A stretch of 46,127 bases of DNA. Source: Asterionella formosa (Eukaryota). A program made the translations under genes and the position numbers. The DNA is taken from positions 1 through 46,127 of the forward strand of contig NKIB01014205.1 in NCBI GenBank assembly GCA_002256025.1, written 5' to 3'. The notes beneath the pieces are model-generated. The model made no database searches and was not told the DNA's origin. It worked only from the letters and a program-made list of their open reading frames with translations. This document shows positions 3,858 through 38,300 of the stretch, one piece after another. The stretch's first letter is position 1. Every line of letters begins with the position of its first letter.

Positions 3858-5672
3858 ATGAGCGTCTTCCAACTGCTGCTCTCGGCAGTGGGACTCCTTA
3901 TTCTGTTGCCGCCGCCGGCGTCAGCGTTCTTGCAACGTCCGAGTATTCGATCTGCCTTCAGCAGATCGGATCACTGCCCGAGTGAATGGTCCGCCTTGAA
4001 AGTATTGAGCGAGGGCGACGCCGAGCCCAAAAATAATTCGTATCTAGCGACGTGCATACCTGGCCTCTCCAATGTGCTCGCTGGCGAACTCCAAGCGCTG
4101 GGAGCAGTCAACGTGGAAACGTCGGGCAACGCTGCCGTTACCTTTCAAGGCTCGTCCAAGACTGGACTGCACGCCCTGCTCTGGCTTCGTACTGTCCACC
4201 GCTTAATGGAGCTCGTTGCGTCGGAAAGGAATCTGGAAACGAGACAGCACTTGCACGATTTTGTCTCTGACAATGTCAATGTCCAACAACTACTAGGCAA
4301 CGGAAGTGGCGGACTGCTCACTTTGTCAGTTCACTCCATTCTCAACCAACCCTCGTTATTGCCCAAGGACCTCACGCACTCACATTTTACTTCACTCACC
4401 ATCAAAAACGCGCTTTGTGATATTGTACGGGACCTCCGGGGAGATCGACCGGACGTGGAGTTGGAAAATCCCGACGTACCACTTGTTTGTGTTCTTAGGG
4501 GTATGCCAGGGAACACTGCTGAAGCATCGCTCTATCGACAGTTGCATTCCCCTGGATCGTTACACAAGAGAGGCTATCGGGGAGATTCGGCCATCCACAA
4601 AGCTGCGATGAAGGAGTCCTTGGCGGCAGGTTTATTGTTGGGTGCTGGGTGGGGCGACAAGGTCAACGAATTGAAAGCAGTCCCAACGCCAACGACTGTC
4701 TTGGACCCCATGGCGGGGTCTGGATCATTCATTTTAGAAGCGGCCATGATAGCAGCTGATATTGCGCCTGGTTTGATGCGTATCAAGTGTACCGGTCCGC
4801 TACAGCCACCTGTCTTGCGGTGGAAGTCAAGTCAAGGGTTGGAAGACACGTGGAAGGAACTACTGATAGAATCGACCCAACGAGCCAAGAATGGATTACA
4901 GTGGTGTAAGAATGGACCTTTGAAATTCATTGCAAATGATATTCATTCGGGGGCACTCGATATTTGTGAAACTTCCCTACAACAAGCAGGGTTGTTGCAA
5001 CTCGTGGAACTCCGACAAGGTGATTGTGTGGATTTGAAGGTTCCACAGGACGCGGCCACACTTGTTTTTACTAACCCACCGTGGGGTGTAAGGTTAGATA
5101 ATGACATGAATGCTAGTTGGGAGTCATTGCGACACTTGCTGCGAGATTCTTGTCCGCCAAACACGGAGGCGTGGGTCTTGTCAGGAAATAAGGTAGCAAC
5201 CAAACATCTTGGATTGAAGCGTAGTAATAGTTTGCAAGTCAAGACAGCCGAACAAGACTTGAGGTGGATTCAGTACTTAATTTTGGACGAGGAAGGGGTA
5301 GCACGGCTCAAGGAGGCAAGTGGAAACTACAGGGAATATGAAGACGAGGACGGGTACGTGAAGCCACAACAAACACCCCCTCGTGCCGAGAGACCGGATA
5401 ATAACTGGATAGCTGATCGAGCTCCATCGCGTCTGGACAAGGGGAAAACCAGTAGCTACGATCAACGTCAATCTTCAGGTGGTAGGGGGTACGAACGGCG
5501 GCATTCATCTGGTGGTCGAGAAAGAACTGATAAAAACGTTGTTGGTGGATGGGAAAGTCGAGGAAGGGGGCATTATGAAAAACAACAAACGGAACGACGT
5601 AGAGCCAGTGATGTGACACCACTGACCGACAAGGAACGTGAAGCCAACAAGTCATCATGGTATATCGAGTAA
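3858..5672 (+). CDS. rlmL: THUMP-domain rRNA guanine-N2 methyltransferase, RlmL-like, plastid-targeted
   Basis: Signal peptide + ASAF; THUMP region; SLHKRGYR...AAMKESLAAGLL; SAM motif LDPMAGSGSF; catalytic-type NPPW; no RlmK half; low-complexity C-tail. Confidence 0.85.
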   Translation: MSVFQLLLSAVGLLILLPPPASAFLQRPSIRSAFSRSDHCPSEWSALKVLSEGDAEPKNNSYLATCIPGLSNVLAGELQALGAVNVETSGNAAVTFQGSSKTGLHALLWLRTVHRLMELVASERNLETRQHLHDFVSDNVNVQQLLGNGSGGLLTLSVHSILNQPSLLPKDLTHSHFTSLTIKNALCDIVRDLRGDRPDVELENPDVPLVCVLRGMPGNTAEASLYRQLHSPGSLHKRGYRGDSAIHKAAMKESLAAGLLLGAGWGDKVNELKAVPTPTTVLDPMAGSGSFILEAAMIAADIAPGLMRIKCTGPLQPPVLRWKSSQGLEDTWKELLIESTQRAKNGLQWCKNGPLKFIANDIHSGALDICETSLQQAGLLQLVELRQGDCVDLKVPQDAATLVFTNPPWGVRLDNDMNASWESLRHLLRDSCPPNTEAWVLSGNKVATKHLGLKRSNSLQVKTAEQDLRWIQYLILDEEGVARLKEASGNYREYEDEDGYVKPQQTPPRAERPDNNWIADRAPSRLDKGKTSSYDQRQSSGGRGYERRHSSGGRERTDKNVVGGWESRGRGHYEKQQTERRRASDVTPLTDKEREANKSSWYIE

Positions 5673-6410: not shown

Positions 6411-6936
6411 CCGATTAGCCATCCCAAAAAGCGGAGCGATACCTGTACGTACTTGTTTTGAGATGATGTTCTTCAGCAGCACCAGAGTTTGCAGCGAGCT
6501 TGCAAGGATTCTTCTTTGCGAACCCTGGAGAACCCGCGTCATGGGCTTGTGCTTGACGCCATGTTTCCACTCAAAAAGTGGGAATAGTAAGGATCGGGAT
6601 AAGGAATTGCCCCCTAGTTGATCTGTCTATTGCCCTAAAGCTGCTACCTCAGTTTTATCGTATTTCGATTGGTGGAGTTATGAGAACTCCTGACAGAAAT
6701 GAAGTCACTTTTTTCGCCCATCAGCATGAGAACTCCGATTGATGTGAACGATTGACAATGCAAAATCTCCACCAGTAAATGGAAAAAACTGCTCCAGTAA
6801 AGAACAGGCAGAGCCTCACAATTTCACTGCAATCCTTCGGTGCAGGCATTGGCAGGCACCTTTCGTCCTTCACATAAAAGGAGCATTTCACTCCCGGTAG
6901 TTCTCTCACAATTTCAGTATAGCACTCCAGTTCATC

Positions 6937-8235
6937 ATGATGTTTTCTCGCATTGCCACGTCTACCGCCAAGCGCACGTCTAAGTCAAGACGTGGCTTGG
7001 CGTCTGCGTGGTCGGGCGATCTCTCCTTTTCATCTCCTGAATCTGACTTTTTGTGGCATGCTGTCCCGCGATCGGGCCACAGTGGTGCTCATGCCCACCA
7101 TGAGTGGACTCGATCGCTTTCCTTTGCCTCACCGGAATCCGATTTCAAGTCATCCTTCGAAGTCCATCATTTGACTGCACCTCCTGCAGAATGGTCAGCA
7201 CAAATTTCATTTGCGTCCCCAGAAGCAGACTACACTTGTAATCCCACTGCTCCTGATGCCGAATGGTCCAATCACTACTCTTTTACATCGCCAGAATCAG
7301 ATTTCAAGGCTCACATATTAACACTCTCTCAACAGCAAGCGCAAGTTTATGACGACCTTGTCCATCGCAATGAACAACCTCGTGAATCCGACGCTTCTCC
7401 AGTTCCTGTTTGGTCCGGTGATCTCTCCTTTTCATCGCCTGAATCTGATTTTCTTGCAGAAACCAACCCCCGATTCGATCACGTCGGAGAACACCATGAT
7501 TGGACCCAATCTCTTACCTTTGCCTCTCCAGAATCCGATTTTCAGTCGTCATTCGACGAACACCACATGTCCGCACCTGTTTCGGAATGGTCGGAAGGGC
7601 TCTCGTTTGCTTCTCCAGAAGCAGATTTCACTTGCAACCCAACGGCCCCCGACATTGAATGGTCCAATCATTACTCCTTCTCCTCGCCAGAATCTGATTT
7701 CGCCATTTTGGCGCTACCAGAACAGCAGGGGCAAGAATATCTTAATGACTTTCTTTCTCGACACCCACTCTACCACCAATCCATCTTACATCCAGAATCT
7801 GCCCTTGGTGAGATTCCGGTACATCATTTGATGTCATCACTCCCCGTCGAACCCCTTCCACGCTCGCTGGCCGATGCCATGAGCGACACTCGCGCCGTGG
7901 TCATTACGTCTGCTGAAAAGCCTTTTGAAATTGTCGATGTGAACGACGCATGGGTGGGACTCTGTGGGTTCGAGCGAGCCGAGGCTTTGCAGGGTTCACT
8001 CAAGATGCTTCAGGGACAGGCTACCAATATAAGTGCACTGGATAGTCTCATGGCCAGCCTCCAGCAAGGGCAAGAGGCTCAAACATTGGTGACGAATTAC
8101 AAAAAGTCTGGGGCTGCATTTTTGAATCATGTGCAAGCGGGTGTGATTCGTGATGCGCAGACGCAGGAAGTGACACACTTTGTGGGTGTCTTGCAAGAGA
8201 TTCTTCTTCAAGATCAACGTATGTCCGCGTACTAA
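6937..8235 (+). CDS. Protein with 8 WSxxLSFxSPESDF repeats and a C-terminal LOV-like PAS domain; mitochondrial-type presequence
   Basis: 432-aa intronless ORF; N-terminus R/S/K/T-rich without acidic residues; repeats at 7009-7701; PAS motifs VVIT..PFEIVDVNDAWVGLCGF..EA..SLKMLQG..TNYKKSG..FLNH..HFVGVL. Confidence 0.85.
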   Translation: MMFSRIATSTAKRTSKSRRGLASAWSGDLSFSSPESDFLWHAVPRSGHSGAHAHHEWTRSLSFASPESDFKSSFEVHHLTAPPAEWSAQISFASPEADYTCNPTAPDAEWSNHYSFTSPESDFKAHILTLSQQQAQVYDDLVHRNEQPRESDASPVPVWSGDLSFSSPESDFLAETNPRFDHVGEHHDWTQSLTFASPESDFQSSFDEHHMSAPVSEWSEGLSFASPEADFTCNPTAPDIEWSNHYSFSSPESDFAILALPEQQGQEYLNDFLSRHPLYHQSILHPESALGEIPVHHLMSSLPVEPLPRSLADAMSDTRAVVITSAEKPFEIVDVNDAWVGLCGFERAEALQGSLKMLQGQATNISALDSLMASLQQGQEAQTLVTNYKKSGAAFLNHVQAGVIRDAQTQEVTHFVGVLQEILLQDQRMSAY

Positions 8236-8885
8236 CAAGCTTACACTGCAACACTTTGCACGTAACGTAGTCCATGTTATGGTCGCTGTGACACTACTAT
8301 CTGCCATTAGTTTAAAGAGAATTATATTAGTATAAACTATTAATTTTTTCAAGACCTGCAAGACTTTGTCTCATGCCATTGATGAGCAAAACCACCACCG
8401 TGTCGGCAATAACCTTTCGAAAAATGCTTTATTTACCAAATCCTGTTCACGTGGTATGTATTAGAAAGTTTGTCTTGGGTATAAATGTAGAGCAACAAGT
8501 TTTTCATCATGCGTATATATGTATAGCTAGACCCGGTTCTCTATTGATGAAATATCAATGTGCTGTGGAACTCCTCCCAGCCATGCACAGTTTTGTCTAA
8601 CGAACAAATCATCATAATAGCGGTACAACTACGGTATCCTAGGTGCTATGTGAAGCGTGCGACATGCTGGCAACGCCAGGAACCAAACCCTTCTAGCAAA
8701 TGAGTAGTCATAAAGCGCTTAATATAAGTGAGGTTAAATTTTAAAGTGTCAGGGTATAGGAATGGCAAGAAAGTCTTGACTATTTCCTTGATTACTTGTT
8801 TACTGAAAAGAGACTGGCTGATAGGTCAACTGACAAATGCCTTACAGTGTTTTGAACAAGTCAATGCAGCGAAACTTAATGTGCT

Positions 8886-10059: not shown

Positions 10060-10405
10060 TTGGTACCAGGTAATGTCTGGTACGTTCACTACAGCAGTAG
10101 TGCCTGGTAGAGTACCAGGTACCTGGTACTGCCAATGCATCATACATGGAGTAACGGCACAGCCCTTACAAATAAAAAATTCAGGTGGCAGCAGGCAGAA
10201 AAAAGAGGATCCGGTCTGCAGGTGGTGGCGGCGGCTGTGAAAAATGTTGGATCCATGATCAGAGGCAGTCGTCCTTGTGACCAATAATATATATGGTATA
10301 TATATACCGGTATGTTGATTAATTATATATGTACCAGTACTCCGAATTTTGCAAGGCAAATACATACCCGTTGATAGACTACCGGTACCGGTGTACTGGT
10401 ACCGT
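10060..10405. repeat. GGTACC/CCWGG/TACCGGTA arrays upstream of citrate synthase
   Basis: GTACCAGGTACCTGGTAC near 10112; TACCGGTACCGGTGTACTGGTACCG near 10380. Confidence 0.7.
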
Positions 10406-10572
10406 AATACCTATTATTCTTAGGATCTGCTGGCAGGCAGATTGTCGGTTTGTAGCTTCGCTGATGCTGTGTCTTTGGCCTAATTCTTTCGGTGTCCATT
10501 CATCCTTAGTCGTCGACGCAATTGATCACAACAGCAACTACCAGGTACCGAAAGTGATTGAAACATATTACC

Positions 10573-12217
10573 ATGATGCTCTCCAACGCCAGCAAGGTCC
10601 TATTGAGGAAGGTGCGCACATGTATGAACTTCGTTGTCAGGATGGAAGCGCTCAGCCATCCGTCGGGGGATTGTTAACAGTTGCGAAAGTACCGGAACTT
10701 CCATCGCCATGCCTCATTGCATTCCATTCACTCGCTGCCTCTTCATCCCCTCCACAGACAGCCACCAGTGCTTCGATTCGCAGCATCACGTCCCTGAAAG
10801 ACACTCTCTACGCGCAGATCGCAGAGAAGCAAAAGACTCTGAACTCGCTCAAGAAGGAGCATGGCGACCAAGTGTACGTTTCGCGGTGGACTCGACGAGC
10901 CTTCCACCGCCTGGCTTGCAGGGACAGGGACACGGACACATCCTTCGCTAACACCGCATCTCATCTCATCTACATTCTAGGATCGGCACAGTCACAATTG
11001 ATCAACTCATTGGCGGAGCTCGTTCCGTCAAGTGCATGCTCTGGGAAACGTCCAACCTTGACCCTGCCGAAGGGATCCGCTTCCGAGGCCTCACTATTCC
11101 TGAATGCCAAGCTGTGCTCCCCACATACTCAGGGAAAACAGGGGATGGCGAGCCTCTCATGGAATCCATCCTCTGGTTGCTCCTTACATCGGAAGTTCCG
11201 ACCAAGGAACAAGTAGACTCGCTCACTGCCGATCTTCATTCGCGGGCACAGCTACCTGATCACGTCGTTCCCCTCCTCAACAGTCTTCCCAAGGACATGC
11301 ACCCCATGACTCAGTTTACCATCGGGGTCAATGCTTGTCAGACAGAATCAAAATTCGCAAAGGCATACGCAGAAGGTGCACCGAAGACGGCGTACCATGA
11401 GTATGCCCTCGACGACATCCTTGATGTGATCGCGAAATTACCTGAGATCGCTGCTACCATTTACCGCAACGTTTACTTCGATGGAGTCGTCAAAAAGGAC
11501 ACTTCCTTGGATTACAGTGGAAATTTTTGTCGCATGTTGGGATATGAGGATCCATCCTTTGATGAATTGATGCGCCTCTATTTGACTATCCATACCGACC
11601 ACGAAGGTGGTAATGCTTCGGCGCACACAACCCATCTGGTTGGATCTACCCTGGCGGATCCGTACCTCTCATATGCCGCTGGTCTCAATGCGCTGGCTGG
11701 TCCTCTCCATGGACTCGCCAACCAAGAAGTCCTCAAGTGGATTCAAGAATTGTCGGACAAATTTAACGCGGAAGGCAAAGAAATCAACGCCGAGACTATT
11801 ACGGAATTCGCCTGGGACACGCTTAATGCCAAAAAGGTCATTCCAGGATATGGACACGCCGTTTTGCGCAAGACAGACCCACGTTACACTTGCCAACGTG
11901 AGTTCGCCCTCAAGCACATGCCAGACGATGCACTATTTAAGGTTGTCGACACCATTTACTCCGTCATGCCTGGAATTTTGAAGGAACACGGAAAGGTGGC
12001 CAATCCATACCCAAACGTTGATTCACATTCTGGTGTCTTGTTGTGGCACTATGGATTTACTCAGTATCAGTATTACACTGTCTTGTTTGGGGTCTCCCGT
12101 GCGGTGGGAGCGTTGAGTCAATTGTACTGGGACCGCGCACTTGGGTTGGCCTTGGAACGCCCCAAGAGTGTTACACCCGAGTGGTTGCTGGCTCAAGTGG
12201 CGGCGGCCAAAAAATAA
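10573..12217 (+). CDS. CS: Mitochondrial citrate synthase, 3 exons (10573-10611, 10758-10873, 10981-12217)
   Basis: GT-AG introns 10612-10757 and 10874-10980 restore the frame ([19 protein letters not shown]...[19 protein letters not shown]); motifs [45 protein letters not shown]. Confidence 0.95.
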
Positions 12218-28651: not shown

Positions 28652-29947
28652 ATGCTCGCCCAAAGCGTATTGGCGCTATCTCTGAGGAGCAGCAACAGCA
28701 GCAAAAAACTGTTGCATCCCACTCTAAGAAGACGCCGATCAACAACGACAAATGACCATCTCCAAAGCCTGTACCACTCCATGATTGCCAAACAAAATGG
28801 GATTCATCTCGATGTATATCAGCTTCGGGCCATCCAAGCATTGGATCGACTGTACAATGATTTGAAAGTGGATAAAGAAGATGCACCAACGAGCTTCTTC
28901 TGGAGTTCCGCAAAGCCACAACCACCCCCGAAAGGTGTTTACTTACACGGAGGTGTGGGATGCGGGAAAACATTTTGTATGAATCTATTCTTCCAAGAAG
29001 CTCCCACAAAATCGAAACAAGCGGTGCACTTTCACAAATTCATGTTGTCGGTTCATCAACAGATGCACAATGCTAAAAAGACACACAACTTGCAAGGATC
29101 GGCCATTTTGGAACATGTCGTTAACAACATCCTGGAACAGGGGAAGCTCATTTGCTTTGATGAATTTCAAGTTACAGATGTAGGAGATGCTATGGTATTG
29201 CAACGCTTATTTACTTCGTTACTACAACAAGGATGTGTCATTGTCGCAACCTCAAATCGGCCTCCCTCGGATTTGTACTTGGGTGGTCTACAACGAGATC
29301 GATTTATTCCGTTCATTCGATTATTGGAACAAAAGTGCCAAGTCATTGACATGTGGGAAAGTGAAACAGACTACCGACTGGTGCAAGGAAACCAGGCGAA
29401 GGATGTTTACTTTGTGGGACACAAACAAGGCTTTGAAGAAATATTTCAGACCCTTACCAAGGATACTCCAGTCATGTACACCAACTTGTCAACGCAAGGA
29501 CGACTAGTGCCAGTCCCCCGGGCGGTTCCCACCAAGGGAGTTTGCCGGTTCACCTTTCAAGAACTTTGTCAAAAAGCCTTGGGGGCGGCGGACTACTTAG
29601 TGATTGGTCAACACTTTCATACAGTATTTTTGGAAGACGTTCCGAAGCTTAGTATCCATGAGATTAACTGGGTCCGCCGCTTTATTGTGTTTATCGATAG
29701 TATGTACGAATGTCATGTCAAACTTATTATTTCTGCCATGGGTCAACCAGATGAAATATTCCAAGTTGATTTGGAAAATAAAAGTCATGATGAAGTCTTC
29801 GCCTTTGATAGGACAAGATCGAGATTGGAAGAAATGAGGTCGTCAACTTATTTGACCAAGCGATGGGTGGGACATGAATCGACTGAAGAGGATCCATTGA
29901 AATTACTTAGTGTCGGCGAAAGCAATCATGCCACAATCAAAGGATAA
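28652..29947 (+). CDS. AFG1: AFG1/LACE1 (ZapE-like) mitochondrial AAA+ ATPase
   Basis: PKGVYLHGGVGCGKT (Walker A), HFHKFM, LICFDEFQVTD (Walker B), ATSNRPP..LY..GLQR, LGAADY, RRFIVFID.MYE, FAFDRTRSRL.EM; basic presequence. Confidence 0.93.
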   Translation: MLAQSVLALSLRSSNSSKKLLHPTLRRRRSTTTNDHLQSLYHSMIAKQNGIHLDVYQLRAIQALDRLYNDLKVDKEDAPTSFFWSSAKPQPPPKGVYLHGGVGCGKTFCMNLFFQEAPTKSKQAVHFHKFMLSVHQQMHNAKKTHNLQGSAILEHVVNNILEQGKLICFDEFQVTDVGDAMVLQRLFTSLLQQGCVIVATSNRPPSDLYLGGLQRDRFIPFIRLLEQKCQVIDMWESETDYRLVQGNQAKDVYFVGHKQGFEEIFQTLTKDTPVMYTNLSTQGRLVPVPRAVPTKGVCRFTFQELCQKALGAADYLVIGQHFHTVFLEDVPKLSIHEINWVRRFIVFIDSMYECHVKLIISAMGQPDEIFQVDLENKSHDEVFAFDRTRSRLEEMRSSTYLTKRWVGHESTEEDPLKLLSVGESNHATIKG

Positions 29948-30230: not shown

Positions 30231-33200
30231 TTAGAAATCCTGGAAGGCACGGAACTTTGCTCCGAGACTCTGTAATTTCTGAGTTGCAATAATCTAGAAA
30301 TGCGAGCAAAAGAATGAGCTACAGCGATAAACTAGAAACCCAAATCGGAAGCATGTAAATACTCACCAGATGAACAACTTGGCGAAACTTAGCCTTTGGA
30401 TGGAAATCTTTCAACTGCTCCTTGTTGGACGCTAAATTGTTTTTGCCCAGTGTGTCCACGTCGGCATTGATCCATGCACTCTTTAACGCTTCAGCAGCAG
30501 ATAAGCGTGTGTCAGGGTCAACTGTTAACAAGCCTCGCACCAAATCTTTCGCATCGTTGGAGACATGACTCCAATATTTAGAGTGAAATTTATAGTTTCC
30601 ATATCGAGTATTCTTCATAACTTCGTCAGATTCTCCTTGAAATGGACGATAACCTCCCAAGACAATGTAGATGATTACCCCAAGACTCCACATGTCGCAT
30701 TTCACATCATACGCAGGTCTATGCTCAAGAATTTCGGGTGCAACGTAGCCTTCAGTGCCGCATTGTGTCCGAAGTGAATTGGGAAAGAGTACTTTCTTAG
30801 CGTAACCAAAATCAGAGATCTTAACATCGGTATCACTCGTTTTGGACACCAATAACAAGTTCTCAGGCTTGAGATTTCGGTTAGCAATCTTACGAGAGTG
30901 ACAAAATTCCACACCAAATAGCAGTTGCCTGCAGACTTCCCTAGCATCGCCTTCACTATAGTGAGCCCTTTCAAGAATGCGGTCGATTAAGTCACCTCCG
31001 TCCATCCGTTCAAGAACGATATAGATGTTATCTGTTTCCTCAAAGACATCTCGAATTTTGACAATGTAAGGACAGTCAGCGAGAACCTTCAGAGCTGTAA
31101 TCTCATCCTGTAAGGCTACTGCATCACTTGGATGAAGATCGTTTCGTCGGACACACTTGATTGCATATGGATTGTTGGACTTAGAATGATTTGCCTCATA
31201 AACAGTGGAGAACTCGCCGGATCCAAGCTGCTTTCCGAGGTTGTAAAGGTCACTGAAGCGAGCGCCACCGGATGAACCCTCTTCTAACAGCTCGTTCGAA
31301 GTCACGACAGATTCTTCAAGCACCTGCCCATCGTTATCTCGCTTGATTGCTCCGCGAGTGTCAAGGGCATAATTGAACGAGTCTCCGAGGGTGGTCATCT
31401 TCCTAGCCGCAACCAGTGCTGTCATAGTTTCTTGTTGATTCTCCTCATGAAGCGAAGTCCTTATTCTCTCTCGAGCACCCGACAAATCCTTGATCGTCAG
31501 TCTTTCCTCGTCCGCATTCATCCACTCGTTTTGTAGCGCTTCCTCTGCTGTAAAACGAATTTCAGGATTTATTTGCAGCAAGGCAGAAACCAAATCCTTT
31601 GCTCCACCTGAAATTGACGACCAGTGCTCGTCCTGAAACTCGTATTCTCCCTTTAAGATTGTCATTGCTAGGTCCTCGATGGGCCCCGTAAATGGAGCAT
31701 ACCCTCCAAGTAAAATGAATGTAACAACGCCGCAACTCCACATGTCTACCCTTTCATCGTATCCCTTCGAATTTAAGGCAATGACTTCGGGAGCGACATA
31801 CGCCGGAGTACCGCAAAGAGTTCTAAGGCAATTTTTCTTGCCCACCTTCTTTGCAAATCCAAAATTTGTTATCTTGATACTCGTGTCGTTTCCAGGTTCC
31901 TGATGGCATAAGCGGTATTAGGTACAGTAGGTGTGTATATATTGAAGGTTACCAAGAACGTACCACAAGCAACAAATTCTCTGGCTTGATGTCGCGATGA
32001 GCAATATTCTTCTTGTGGCAATAGTCGAGTGCATCGAGTAAAACCTTTATTGTTTGCCGAACCTCCCTTTCGGTGTACATTTCTTGATCAACGAGGTGCC
32101 GTAACAATTCGCCGCCACCCATCTCTTCCATAATCATGTATGTCACGTCAACTTCTTCGAAAACATCGTGAAGGCGAACTATGTGAGGCCCGCCACGGAG
32201 GAGCTTCAATGCTTGGATTTCATCCTTGAGAGCATCCAGGGCACCAGCCGGTAACTTTGAGAGAGGGACTTTCTTACAGGCGAACTTTTCGAATGGTGGC
32301 TTCTTGTGAGTTGCTTGGTACACTGAAGCGAAGCCGCCTTCTCCGAGCTATGAGGGCATGAAAAATTAGAATGAGAAACTCAAATAAAGTAGTGAAATCT
32401 CCCCCAAAAGACAAAAAACTCACCAATTCACCAAGGGAATAGAATGTGTCAAAAGGTTGACCCTCTTCAGATTCTAACAGTTGAGATTTCGCGTTTGGGT
32501 TCATAGATGGTCTTGTTTTAAAGGATGACTCGTCTCCTCGCTTGTGCTCGAGATATTTCTTGAATCCCTCGTTCAGATCTTCCAAGCGACGGGGCTCAAC
32601 TACGTGGGCAACAGCAGCCTTTATCTTCTTCGTGGCACCAGTAAGAGACGCTTTCAACTTTTCCATATTCGCACTTGACCGTCGTCGACAGGGCTGCTCG
32701 TCCATCTCCACCATGTATCCTTGCTGGAGAGCCTCAGTGGCTGACAATCGTTTGTTGGGTTTTATCGTTAGCAATTTGGTGACAAGTTCCTTTGCATTTC
32801 CGGAAATATCTCGCCAATAGGCGGGATCAAAGCCGTACTGGCCATTTCGTGTTCTATCAAAGACCATGTCGTCTTCATCATCTTCAAACGGTAAATATCC
32901 ACCAAGAAGAAGGAAAAGAATTACACCAACAGACCAAAGGTCACACTTGGTGTCGTAGGCTGGCCAACGCTCGAGAATCTCAGGTGCTAGGTAACCGGGT
33001 GTACCACAAAGCGTGCGACACCCGTTTCGTTCCGAAATTTCCTTGGCAAAGCCAAAATCAGCAAGTTTTATATCTGTGTCTTTTCCTTTGGTCTGCAAAA
33101 CACCGTACAAAGGGACGACGTTCATGTCAGCCACCGAAGAGAACAAAGGTCGATGTTGATACTGGCTTCCTTACACGTACTATTGCCTAGTAATTCGCAC

Positions 33201-35359: not shown

Positions 35360-38300
35360 CTAGAAATCTTGGAAAGCCCTATACTGTGATCCGAGACTTT
35401 GTAACTTGTTTGTTGCAATAATCTGAAAAAATTGGAAAAAAGATTAGTTACAGCACAAAAAGGGAACAATCCAATTAAAGCATACCCATGAAAGTACTTA
35501 CCAAATTCACTACTTTGCGCATTGCAGCCTTTGGCTTGAAATCCTTCAGTTGCTCTTGGTTCGTCGCCAAATCGGTTTTACCAAGTGCATCCACATCGGC
35601 ATTGATCCATGTACTCTTTAAGGCATCGGAAGCTGATAAGCGCCTGTCGGGATCTACAGTCAACAATCCTCGAATCAAATTTTTTGCATCATCTGACACA
35701 TGACTCCAATATTTGGGATGGAATTCGAAAATTCCATACCGAATTTGTTTCATAACTTCGTCAGATTCTCCTCTGAAGGGTCGGTAGCCCCCCAAAACAA
35801 TGTAGATGATTACCCCAAGACTCCACATGTCGCATTTCACATCATACGCAGGTCTATGCTCAAGAATCTCGGGTGCAACGTAGCCTTCCGTGCCGCATTG
35901 TGTCCGAAGTGAATTGGGAAAGAGTACTTTCTTAGCATAACCAAAATCAGAGATCTTAACATCGGTATCACTCGTCTTGGACACCAACATCAAGTTCTCA
36001 GGCTTGAGGTTACGGTTAGCAATTTTACGAGAGTGACAAAATTCCACACCAAATAGCAGTTTTCTGCAGACTTCCCTAGCATCGCCTTCACTGTAGTGAG
36101 CCCTTTCGATAATGCGATCGATTAAGTCACCTCCGTCCATCCGTTCAAGAACGATATAGATGTTATCTGTTTCCTCAAAGACATCTTGAATTTTGACAAT
36201 GTAAGGACAGTCAGCGAGAACCTTCAGAGCTGTAATCTCATCCTGCAAGGCAACTGCATCACTTGGTTGAAGGTCGTTTCGTCGGACACACTTGATTGCA
36301 TATGGATTGTTGGACTGAGAATGATTCGCCTCGTACACAGTTGAGAATGCGCCGGACCCAAGCTGCTTGCCGAGAATGTATAGCTCACTAAATGGAGCGC
36401 CACTGGCGGAATCATCTTCTACGTCGGGATCAAAGTCATCTCCGATATTCACGACAGATTCTTCAAGCACCTGCCCATCTTTATCTCGCTTGATCGCTCC
36501 GCTAGTATCAAGGACATCTTTGAACGAGTCTCCAAGAGAGGTCAACTTATTAGCCATAACGACGGCCTTAACCGCCCCTCGGAGTTTCTCAACTGGAAGT
36601 GACCTTTCCATCTTCTTTTGAGCAGTTGACAGATCCTTGATTGTGAGTGTTTCCCCATCGGCAGTCATCCACTCGTTTTGAAGTGCTTCCTCCGCTGTAA
36701 TCCGGATTTCAGGATTCACCTGCAGCAGTGAAGAAACCAAATCCTTTGCTCCACGTGAAATAGACGACCAGAACTCGTCGTGAAACTCGTAGTCTCCCTT
36801 CAAGATTGTCAATGCTAGTTCCTCAGTCGGGCCCTCGAATGGAGCGTATCCTCCAAGTAAAATGAATGTCACAACGCCGCAACTCCACATGTCCGCTCTT
36901 TCATCATATCCTTTTGACTTCAAGTCCAAGATTTCGGGAGCAACATATGCCGCAGTGCCACAAAGAGTTCTTAGAGAATTCTTCTTGACCACCCTTTTTG
37001 CAAATCCAAAATCGGCAATCTTGATGCTCGTGTCGTCGCCCTTTTCCTATTTTATGACATGACAGTCATCAGAAACAGTAATTGAATAAATTGGAAAGGC
37101 GATGAGCGACTAACGTACCTCAAGTAACAAATTCTCTGGCTTGATATCACGATGAGCGATCTTCTTCTTGTGACAATAGTCGAGAGCGTCAAACAATATC
37201 TTCACTGTTTGCCGAGCCTCTCGTTCAGTGTATACTTCTTTCTCAACGATGCGCTGTAACAATTCGCCTCCCCTCATCTCCTCCATAATTATGTATGTCA
37301 CTTCAACTTCTTCGAAGACATCATGGAGACGCACTATATGTGGGCCGCCACGGAGGAGCTTCAGTGCTTGGATTTCATCCTTGAGAGCACCCGAAGCACC
37401 AGCCGGTAACTTTGAGAGAAGGACTTTCTTACAGGCGAACTTTTCGAATGGTGGCTTCTTGTGAGTTGCTTGGTATACTGAAGCGAAGCCGCCTTCTCCG
37501 AGCTATGAATGCATGAAAACTTAGATATGAGAAACGCAAATAACGACGAAACCAAGGAGAAGGGCAAGAGAAACTCACCAATTCACCAAGGGAATAGAAT
37601 GTGTCAAAAGGTTTGCCCTCTTCGGAATCCAATTTTGGAACTTTCGCGTTTGGGTTCATAGATTGTCTAACTTTAAAGGTTGGCTCATCTCCTCGCTTAT
37701 GCTCAAGATATTTGTTAAATCCCTCGTTCAGATCTTGCAATCGATTGGCCACAACCACTGTGTTGATGGCGATCTTGACCTTGTCTTGTGCAGACGCAAG
37801 AGATTCCTTCAACTTTTTCATATCTACTCCCGTCTGTTGAAGGGCTCGGTCATTTGAAGCTATCATGTAATCGTGCTCGAGAGCTCTTTGAGCAGAAAAT
37901 CGCTTGCTGGGGTTAATCGTGAGTAATTTCGTTACAAGCTCCTTGGCACTTCCCGAGACATGTCCCCAATAGTCTGGATGAAATTCGTAAAGGCCATTTC
38001 GTGTTCTATCGAAAACCTTGTCCTCGTTAGCATCGTCAAAGGGTAAATATCCACCAAGAAGAAGGAAAAGAATTACACCAACAGACCAAAGATCACACTT
38101 GGTGTCGTAGGCTGGCCAACGCTCAAGAATCTCAGGTGCTAGGTAACCGGGTGTACCACAGAGTGTGCGACATCCATTTGGATTGATAATCTTCTTGGCA
38201 AATCCGAAGTCCGCAAGTTTGATGTTTGTATCGTTTGTTTTGGTCTGCATCATGAATATGCAAAGCATGGACAGCAATATGTGTCAGCGGATGACATGGA

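Follow-up and report, generated by a model that had tools for sequence, protein, structure and literature searches.

Sequence analysis of a diatom protein family that joins a Cys-less, LOV-derived PAS domain to an array of WSxxLSFxSPESDF motifs, with a putative mitochondrial presequence

Aureochromes combine a bZIP domain with a LOV domain that carries its Cys in the motif GxNCRFLQG and is followed by a C-terminal Jalpha helix; their output module is N-terminal and the sensor C-terminal. Passages of Coesel et al. 2021 (PMC8017926) describe a LOV clade of stramenopiles and haptophytes with homeobox, bZIP and EF-hand variants in which this Cys is replaced by Leu, the light sensitivity of which was left open there, and state that the LOV-like PAS domains of KCNH proteins also lack the light-sensitive motif. 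The EF-hand-LOV type is named again in the corresponding part of a 2026 survey (PMC13737086). Since these passages place a Cys-to-Leu LOV clade in print, a PAS domain without the Cys is not new in itself. Here, a gene of Asterionella formosa was analysed in which such a domain is joined to an array of short motifs. The window, i.e. the whole stretch of DNA that was analysed, comprises 46,127 nucleotides (contig NKIB01014205.1 of assembly GCA_002256025.1, positions 1 to 46,127 of the forward strand). The coding sequence lies at 6937..8235 on the plus strand, has no internal stop under the standard code and specifies a protein of 432 amino acids (aa), P0001, in which a presequence-like N-terminus is followed by eight copies of WSxxLSFxSPESDF, a related motif and a C-terminal LOV-type PAS core.

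The PAS core (aa 318-424, 7888..8208, plus strand) was delimited with Pfam, sequence matches to the Protein Data Bank (PDB), AlphaFold2, Foldseek and VIA-align. Pfam PAS_9 (PF13426) matched aa 329-422 with an E-value of 7.5e-10 and a score of 39.4 bits, above the gathering cut-off (27 bits), and the Pfam scan at E-values up to 1 returned PAS families only, with no bZIP, EF-hand or DNA-binding domain. The best PDB sequence matches were LOV domains, namely Meiothermus MrLOV (9vf8, E 2.9e-13) and YtvA (2pr5, E 1.3e-9), followed by aureochrome 1a among others. An AlphaFold2 model computed from a family alignment of 129 sequences reached a predicted local distance difference test score (pLDDT) of 89-98 for aa 301-420, and the top Foldseek matches were all LOV domains with E-values of about 1e-11 to 1e-9. 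The first rank in VIA-align was taken by the LOV domain of P. tricornutum aureochrome 1a, with a Z-score of 18.1 and a root mean square deviation of 2.4 A over 118 aligned residues (residues 309-427 of the model). LOV domains scored Z 16.7-18.1 in this comparison, the PAS domains of KCNH channels 17.3 and 16.8 and the FAD-binding NifL PAS domain 16.8. The protein terminates 8 residues past the PAS core, leaving no room for a Jalpha helix.

The residues that matter for LOV photochemistry were located by projecting the YtvA alignment onto the protein. The initial annotation had claimed that the adduct-forming Cys of the LOV domain is replaced and that the Ibeta signalling Gln is Leu, and the alignments to PDB sequences bear this out: Leu355 (codon 7999..8001, plus strand) stands in GSLKMLQG at the place of the Cys of GxNCRFLQG, and Leu419 (codon 8191..8193, plus strand) at the place of the Gln. 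Both substitutions extend through the 129 sequences of the family alignment, with Leu in 112, Ile in 12 and Val in 5 of them at column 355, and Leu in 125 at column 419. The flavin contacts N61, C62, R63 and Q66 of YtvA correspond in this alignment to S354, L355, K356 and Q359, and R79, N94, N104 and Q123 to M372, N387, N397 and L419. In YtvA, R63 and R79 bind the FMN phosphate, Q66, N94 and N104 hold the flavin ring and Q123 is the Ibeta signalling Gln. The ring contacts are kept (Q359 in 120, N387 in 128 and N397 in 125 of the 129 sequences), whereas column 356 varies and Val, Met, Ile or Leu stand in column 372; N336, W339, C343, P308 and R319 are further invariant or near-invariant residues of the family. 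Judged by sequence and fold, the domain is thus a Cys-less LOV derivative. Because Cys and Ibeta Gln are both replaced by Leu and both phosphate-binding Arg residues are lost, the core would be unable to run the LOV photocycle, and a Cys-adduct photocycle is very probably absent. The loss of both presumed phosphate-clamp Arg residues also makes ordinary FMN binding doubtful.

Absence of the Cys goes together with presence of the motif. None of the 206 PAS domains of motif-bearing proteins has a Cys in the adduct column, as against 24 of the 67 domains of motif-less matches. A FastTree phylogeny of these 273 PAS domains gave no single well-supported split between motif-bearing and Cys-bearing domains, and therefore the association is given as tabulated and no monophyly is claimed. 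The motif-less relatives P0154, P0175, P0188, P0216, P0222 and P0229 have one or two PAS domains, have the W...LCG[YF] signature in common with the family and retain the adduct Cys in G[RK]TC[RSK]ILQG; P0154 nevertheless has Leu at the position of the Ibeta Gln, and therefore the Gln may have been exchanged before the Cys was lost.

The region ahead of the PAS core is built from the repeated motif. Eight copies of a 14-aa motif had been listed in the initial annotation, arranged as a duplicated 4-unit block, better conserved than their His-rich spacers in a manner that implies selection, and not recognised as a named family. A regular expression for WSxxLSFxSPESDF recovered exactly the sequences first listed, starting at aa 25, 57, 86, 110, 159, 189, 218 and 242, and no Pfam family matched the repeat. 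Shuffling the protein 2000 times never produced the full motif, and the six-residue core S[PA]E[SA]D[FY] arose no more than once. Repeat block A (aa 25-140, 7009..7356, plus strand) holds motifs 1-4 at nucleotides 7009-7050, 7105-7146, 7192-7233 and 7264-7305, and repeat block B (aa 159-275, 7411..7761, plus strand) holds motifs 5-8 at 7411-7452, 7501-7542, 7588-7629 and 7660-7701. The duplication is evident from 80 identical residues among the 112 aligned between the blocks and from the spacer TCNPTAPD common to both, while the identity is concentrated in the motifs (49/56 positions) as compared with the spacers (31/56). At the nucleotide level the blocks agree at 238 of 336 positions, and different codons encode 36 of the 80 residues that they share, which indicates that the duplication is old and has been under purifying selection. 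Owing to this divergence Tandem Repeats Finder returned 0 rows on the DNA, and the repeat is detectable at the protein level alone. The closest relatives, P0003 (68% identity) and P0004 (65%), likewise have eight units, and therefore the 2x4 form is older than their split.

Disorder-promoting residues make up 62% of the repeat region, and the pLDDT of the AlphaFold2 model was about 44-59 over aa 1-270. The region is thus modelled as disordered, which fits an array of short linear motifs in a flexible chain, and we slightly favour a function of this array in docking or modification. Among known short motifs the LC3-interacting motif was considered and rejected, with Trp and Leu being four residues apart and not three. 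The phospho-FFAT motif (xFxSPxE) and the Cdc4-type degron (SPxxD/E) bear some resemblance; both expect a cytosolic protein and were not adopted. The spacers contain 14 His in 139 residues. In those at aa 39-56, 71-85, 173-188 and 203-217, His occurs in pairs, with HHEW/HHDW preceding motifs 2 and 6 and VHHL/EHHM following them. The two closest relatives share these pairs and the wider family does not; the pairs may form a feature that is specific to this lineage and sensitive to metal or pH.

The repeat and the PAS domain are found together throughout a large family. A word-indexed homologue search yielded 272 proteins at E <= 0.001, and in all of the 120 matches listed, as in the query, 1-9 core motif copies precede the same PAS type; the repeat is thus conserved, varies in copy number and co-occurs with PAS. 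An exhaustive search of representatives at 50% identity gave 561 matches at E <= 1e-10, counts in this library including some multi-PAS proteins without motifs. The pooled set contained 260 distinct proteins with the N-x-x-W signature of the PAS domain, 207 of them with at least one motif, and 798 motif instances in total. The motif profile over these instances, the frequencies of which are conditional on the regular expression used to pick them, reads (in percent) (E)W73 S73 x x L68 S93 F88 A65 S91 P93 E91 S72/A23 D F93. From the start of one motif to the start of the next, the median distance is 32 aa (quartiles 29 and 39), and the alignment consensus shows that spacer sequence is not conserved family-wide. 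When the repeat region alone (aa 20-270) was used as query, 113 of the 120 proteins listed had a precomputed PAS_9 match, and the remaining 7 were read as having a PAS domain at the end that is truncated or divergent. Among longer proteins (757-2160 aa) a search for the repeat region scored none at E <= 0.001, which is weak evidence against a longer fused form. A protein atlas gave no usable match for aa 1-275 and only generic PAS clusters for the whole protein, and a scan of viral contigs with the family alignment confirmed no relative.

Named sources of family members are the diatoms Fragilaria, Synedra, Pseudo-nitzschia, Nitzschia, Chaetoceros, Attheya and Entomoneis and the bolidophytes Triparma and a 'Bolido...' strain. 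The family is a large one of diatoms and bolidophytes, comprising hundreds of proteins with 1-9 motif copies. Bolidophyte members lack the leading Trp and retain the core LSFxSPESDF. P0055 and P0086 have the same PAS domain and motifs, with pairs of EF-hands (Pfam) inserted between the motifs. One member comes from the transcriptome of a ciliate (Tiarina) and might be prey carry-over. The database annotation of family members reads only 'PAS domain-containing protein'.

The gene is nuclear, intronless and expressed, and derives from a freshwater diatom. The exact P0001 protein is present in a public collection, in which its 90% cluster has 9 members. Assembled polyA RNA contigs from 4 runs of 4 different studies span the transcribed region (6831..8408, plus strand) from 6831/6856 to 8324-8408 without joints and thus without an intron, so that the expression of the open reading frame (ORF) is supported in all 4 studies; strand and expression level are not readable from contigs of this kind. 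One of them terminates at 8354 with a run of A, and the first ATG after the contig starts is that of the ORF at 6937. In total 20 public runs contain the stretch or a part of it, 19 of them on record as RNA. Half or more of the sampled words are present in 8 runs, most of which are metatranscriptomes of lakes or fresh water and several of which are polyA-selected. It is virtually certain that gene and family are real. Other frames across the gene contain ORFs of 75-160 aa at 7349..7831 (plus strand), 7996..8307 (minus strand) and 8048..8275 (minus strand); these arise as by-products of its long open frame and show no sign of being genes.

Between the array and the PAS core lies a related motif, ILHPESALGEIPVHHLMS (aa 283-300, 7783..7836, plus strand), which was recognised from the family consensus and the AlphaFold2 model. 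It is followed by a PLPxxLxxAM helix (aa 306-315, 7852..7881, plus strand) that conservation and the model mark as an N-terminal cap helix of the A'alpha type. The family consensus ahead of the core is SPExAxG...L...L and then PLPxTLxEA, corresponding here to ILHPESALGEIPVHHLMS and then PLPRSLADAM, and in 75 proteins the strict form SPE[ST]AxG occurs at a median of 60 aa ahead of VNxAW. Residues 283-300 are modelled with a pLDDT of 70-78 as short strands and a helix at 295-300; the cap helix is modelled at 311-316 with a pLDDT of 89-97, P308 is kept in 128 of 129 sequences, and the structural alignments to the aureochrome 1a LOV domain begin at residue 309. In P0157, P0170, P0174 and P0207 the cap-type motif is itself repeated 2-5 times, with few or no WSxxLSF units. 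The two motif types have [LF]xSPE[ST] in common and are read as descendants of one unit, the PAS-proximal copy of which packs on the core.

The N-terminus MMFSRIATSTAKRTSKSRRGLASA (aa 1-24, 6937..7008, plus strand) had been described in the initial annotation as resembling a mitochondrial presequence, and its composition agrees with this description in being basic, acid-free, hydroxylated and amphipathic and in lacking a hydrophobic core. It contains 6 Lys/Arg, 8 Ser/Thr and no acidic residue, the sole acidic residue of aa 1-30 belonging to the first motif. The best 9-residue Kyte-Doolittle window is 0.68, and the best amphipathic moment of aa 1-30 is 0.62, the highest among 10 ORFs of the window. 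These traits recur in the family: the first 30 residues of 147 full-length members have a median of 5 Lys/Arg, 91 members have no acidic residue there and 130 at most one, and a hydrophobic core of the signal-peptide kind was present in 0 of the 147. The pattern R-x-[FYL]-[ASTG], which resembles the R-3 type site of the processing peptidase (R-x-[FYL]|[AS]), occurs ahead of motif 1 in 79 of 171 members as compared with 25.7 +/- 4.4 (maximum 38) in 200 shuffles, so that it is enriched without being universal, and is represented here by R19-G-L|A-S. Basic, acid-free N-termini without a hydrophobic core favour mitochondrial import and oppose plastid or secretory routing, and on these compositional grounds a mitochondrial location is considered somewhat more probable than not. 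Literature searches on diatom PAS, LOV and mitochondrial proteins brought up no localisation for the family.

The best structural neighbour, the LOV domain of aureochrome 1a (P. tricornutum; PDB 6t74, 5dkk and 5a8b), is also from a stramenopile, and the protein shares with aureochromes the order of N-terminal output module and C-terminal sensor. Unlike aureochromes, it has no bZIP domain, carries Leu at the positions of both Cys and Gln and ends 8 residues past the PAS core; given the lack of a bZIP domain it is not an aureochrome. Short LOV proteins such as fungal VVD consist of a single core whose only flank is an N-terminal cap packed on it, through which output would pass. The likeness is one of description; VVD differs in being a photocycling FAD/FMN protein that has the Cys and no repeat array. 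The PAS domains of KCNH eag/ELK channels (PDB 4llo and 4hp4) are LOV-like, cofactor-free and a near-equal fold match, but they are parts of ion channels and, unlike the present domain, are not joined to a motif array. For the array itself, Sic1-like multi-site phosphodegrons offer an analogy as near-identical short Ser-Pro motifs in a disordered chain; this likeness suits avidity or threshold behaviour and is meant as an analogy only, with no sequence relationship claimed. Also close, and already in print, is the Cys-to-Leu LOV clade with its EF-hand-LOV forms in the passages of PMC8017926, with which the replacement of the adduct Cys is shared and to which P0055 and P0086 provide a link by adding EF-hands to the same PAS domain and motifs. 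In the EF-hand-LOV type described there an EF-hand pair lies N-terminal to the LOV domain, whereas the protein has no EF-hand match. The passages on this clade in PMC8017926, which deal with combinations of domains, and those in PMC13737086 contain no mention of the WSxxLSFxSPESDF array or of a presequence, and the Thalassiosira PAS/PAC gene models in the relevant part of PMC6738920 could not be mapped to the family. A literature search by motif strings gave no relevant occurrence of the motif, and searches on diatom PAS/LOV proteins and mitochondria turned up no account of the array. The motif array, its cap-type relative and the presequence-like N-terminus thus appear to be undescribed.

Taken together, the protein is most likely an imported, non-photochemical PAS sensor with a multivalent array of linear motifs as output, an explanation for which we put the chances at about even. 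A basic, acid-free presequence of about 24 aa would most likely direct mitochondrial import. It would be followed by a disordered region of about 250 aa in which eight copies of (E)WSxxLSFxSPESDF, about 32 aa apart, arose via duplication of a 4-unit block. One related motif, HPESALGxIxxHHL, and the PLPxxLxxA helix would together cap the PAS core on its N-terminal side; the core is LOV-derived, C-terminal and without a C-terminal helix. Since the Gln/Asn/Asn triad is kept and the phosphate Arg residues are lost, the core probably holds an unphosphorylated flavin-like heterocycle or no cofactor, and it would serve as a dark sensor or as a dimerisation or pairing module. Since all flanking sequence is N-terminal, as in aureochromes, and there is no C-terminal helix, the state of the PAS core would reach the array by way of the N-terminal cap. 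Avidity is the most likely mode of action of the array, which would recruit several copies of a partner, or else the array may be a multi-site substrate that is modified at its near-invariant Ser-Pro, Ser-x-Glu and Ser-Asp positions. The interpretation as an uncharacterised sensor made in the initial annotation is partly supported. It stands for the Cys-less LOV derivative and the motif array modelled as disordered, while an organellar location is proposed from N-terminal composition and the enriched R-x-[FYL]-[ASTG] pattern, and a sensory function, be it for redox state, flavin or a metabolite, is putative.

Several observations weigh against this explanation. The pattern R-x-[FYL]-[ASTG] is missing in 92 of the 171 members, and a basic N-terminus could be a nuclear signal. 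In the structural comparison the cofactor-free KCNH eag/ELK PAS domains come close to the scores of true LOV domains (Z 17.3 and 16.8), and therefore the retained Asn, Asn and Gln are no proof of a ligand. The low pLDDT of the repeat region might reflect poor alignment of a repeat of variable copy number and not true disorder, and the fairly tight motif spacing of 29-39 aa could indicate a structural repeat. These points lead to other accounts of the protein. If the N-terminus were a nuclear signal, the protein could be a cytosolic or nuclear PAS co-regulator, with the acidic-aromatic motifs acting as tandem activation or docking sites and the PAS domain pairing with the homeobox- or bZIP-LOV factors that have the Cys-to-Leu replacement. 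PAS domains are generally held to pair in transcription factors, the motifs are acidic (E, D, S) with bulky hydrophobic residues (W, L, F), and the passages of Coesel et al. 2021 (PMC8017926) assign Cys-to-Leu LOV domains to stramenopile and haptophyte proteins of the homeobox, bZIP and EF-hand types. The account is nevertheless unlikely in view of the 147 member N-termini, which are presequence-like in being acid-free and Ser/Thr-rich with R-x-[FYL]-[ASTG] enriched, of a motif conservation of 88-93 percent per position, far stricter than activation domains usually show, and of the lack of a DNA-binding domain in the Pfam scan. A folded array, in which the unit of about 32 aa would consist of a strand (LSF) and the start of a helix (SPESDF) and might fold on its own or on oligomerisation, would explain the regular spacing (median 32, quartiles 29-39) and the alternation of hydrophobic and polar residues in L-S-F; one-turn helices are modelled at PESDF (H168-172), and in the EF-hand variant P0055 SPESDF leads straight into the first EF-hand region. 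It is made improbable by a pLDDT of about 44-59 across the region despite the alignment of 129 sequences, by spacers that are not conserved, by copy numbers from 1 to 9 and by the 62 percent of disorder-promoting residues.

That the protein is still a light sensor, which binds flavin and signals by photoreduction without a Cys adduct, is likewise given a small probability. Signalling by photoreduction has been shown for engineered and for some natural Cys-less LOV proteins, and this protein retains the fold as well as Q359, N387 and N397, the residues at the flavin ring. The option is raised for Cys-to-Leu variants in a passage of Coesel et al. (PMC8017926), citing Yee et al. 2015. The Ibeta Gln, however, is Leu in 125 of 129 sequences, and both Arg positions of the FMN phosphate clamp are lost. 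In addition, the Gln is needed for relaying flavin protonation, and mitochondria, should the protein be located there, would be an uncommon place for a photoreceptor. The array might also bind the PAS domain of the same protein in trans, its motifs competing with the cap motif (SPESAxG...) in a switchable self-association. Both motif types share the core [LF]xSPE[ST], some members repeat the cap type instead, and the cap motif is modelled beside the PAS core with a pLDDT of 70-78; yet the residues after SPES differ, DF in the one and AxG plus a helix in the other, and this account, too, is given a small probability. Its boldest version, to which we attach even less weight, would see the WSxxLSFxSPESDF units as copies of the PAS-cap motif, so that release of the cap by a ligand or by redox change would let the PAS domain capture motifs of neighbouring molecules. 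With eight motifs in each chain, a minor conformational change would be amplified into a switchable multivalent network or condensate in mitochondria, and the family would be a lineage-specific signalling scaffold of diatoms and bolidophytes in which a LOV/PAS sensor has a new kind of output.

Neighbouring ORFs in the window match an RlmL-like methyltransferase, citrate synthase, a chlorophyll a/b-binding protein, an AFG1-like ATPase and protein kinases, a set that fits the compact nuclear genome of a photosynthetic eukaryote. The ORF at 3858..5672 (plus strand) is RlmL-like with THUMP and UPF0020 methyltransferase domains and begins with a hydrophobic signal peptide to which ASAF is joined, the bipartite plastid-targeting type of diatoms; its product may be a plastid-targeted rRNA methyltransferase. 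The N-terminus of the AFG1-like ATPase ORF (28652..29947, plus strand) is, like that of the PAS protein, basic, acid-free and Ser-rich, and it served as a comparison within the window for the presequence reading, with the RlmL-like ORF as the contrasting type. The citrate synthase domain begins at residue 2 of the ORF 11036..12217 (plus strand), and the overlapping upstream ORF 10329..11216 has no Pfam match; the gene at 10329..12217 (plus strand) probably has an intron or another start. Two protein kinase ORFs on the same strand, 30319..31743 and 35475..36890 (both minus), of 474 and 471 aa, are similar, about 5 kb apart and have the kinase domain equally placed, and are probably a tandem duplicate.

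Diatoms account for a large share of aquatic photosynthesis, and to our knowledge their organellar signalling is almost undescribed. If the presequence is functional, the protein would place a sensor descended from LOV domains inside mitochondria. The family is widespread, with 57 matches at E <= 1e-30 among the 50%-identity representatives, a few multi-PAS proteins without motifs included, and the gene is expressed in lake metatranscriptomes of several studies. Its strictly conserved array of variable copy number would offer a direct handle on the partner by means of peptides, pull-downs and proximity labelling. The family also illustrates a fate of the LOV domain in which the photochemistry is lost while the contacts to the flavin ring are kept.

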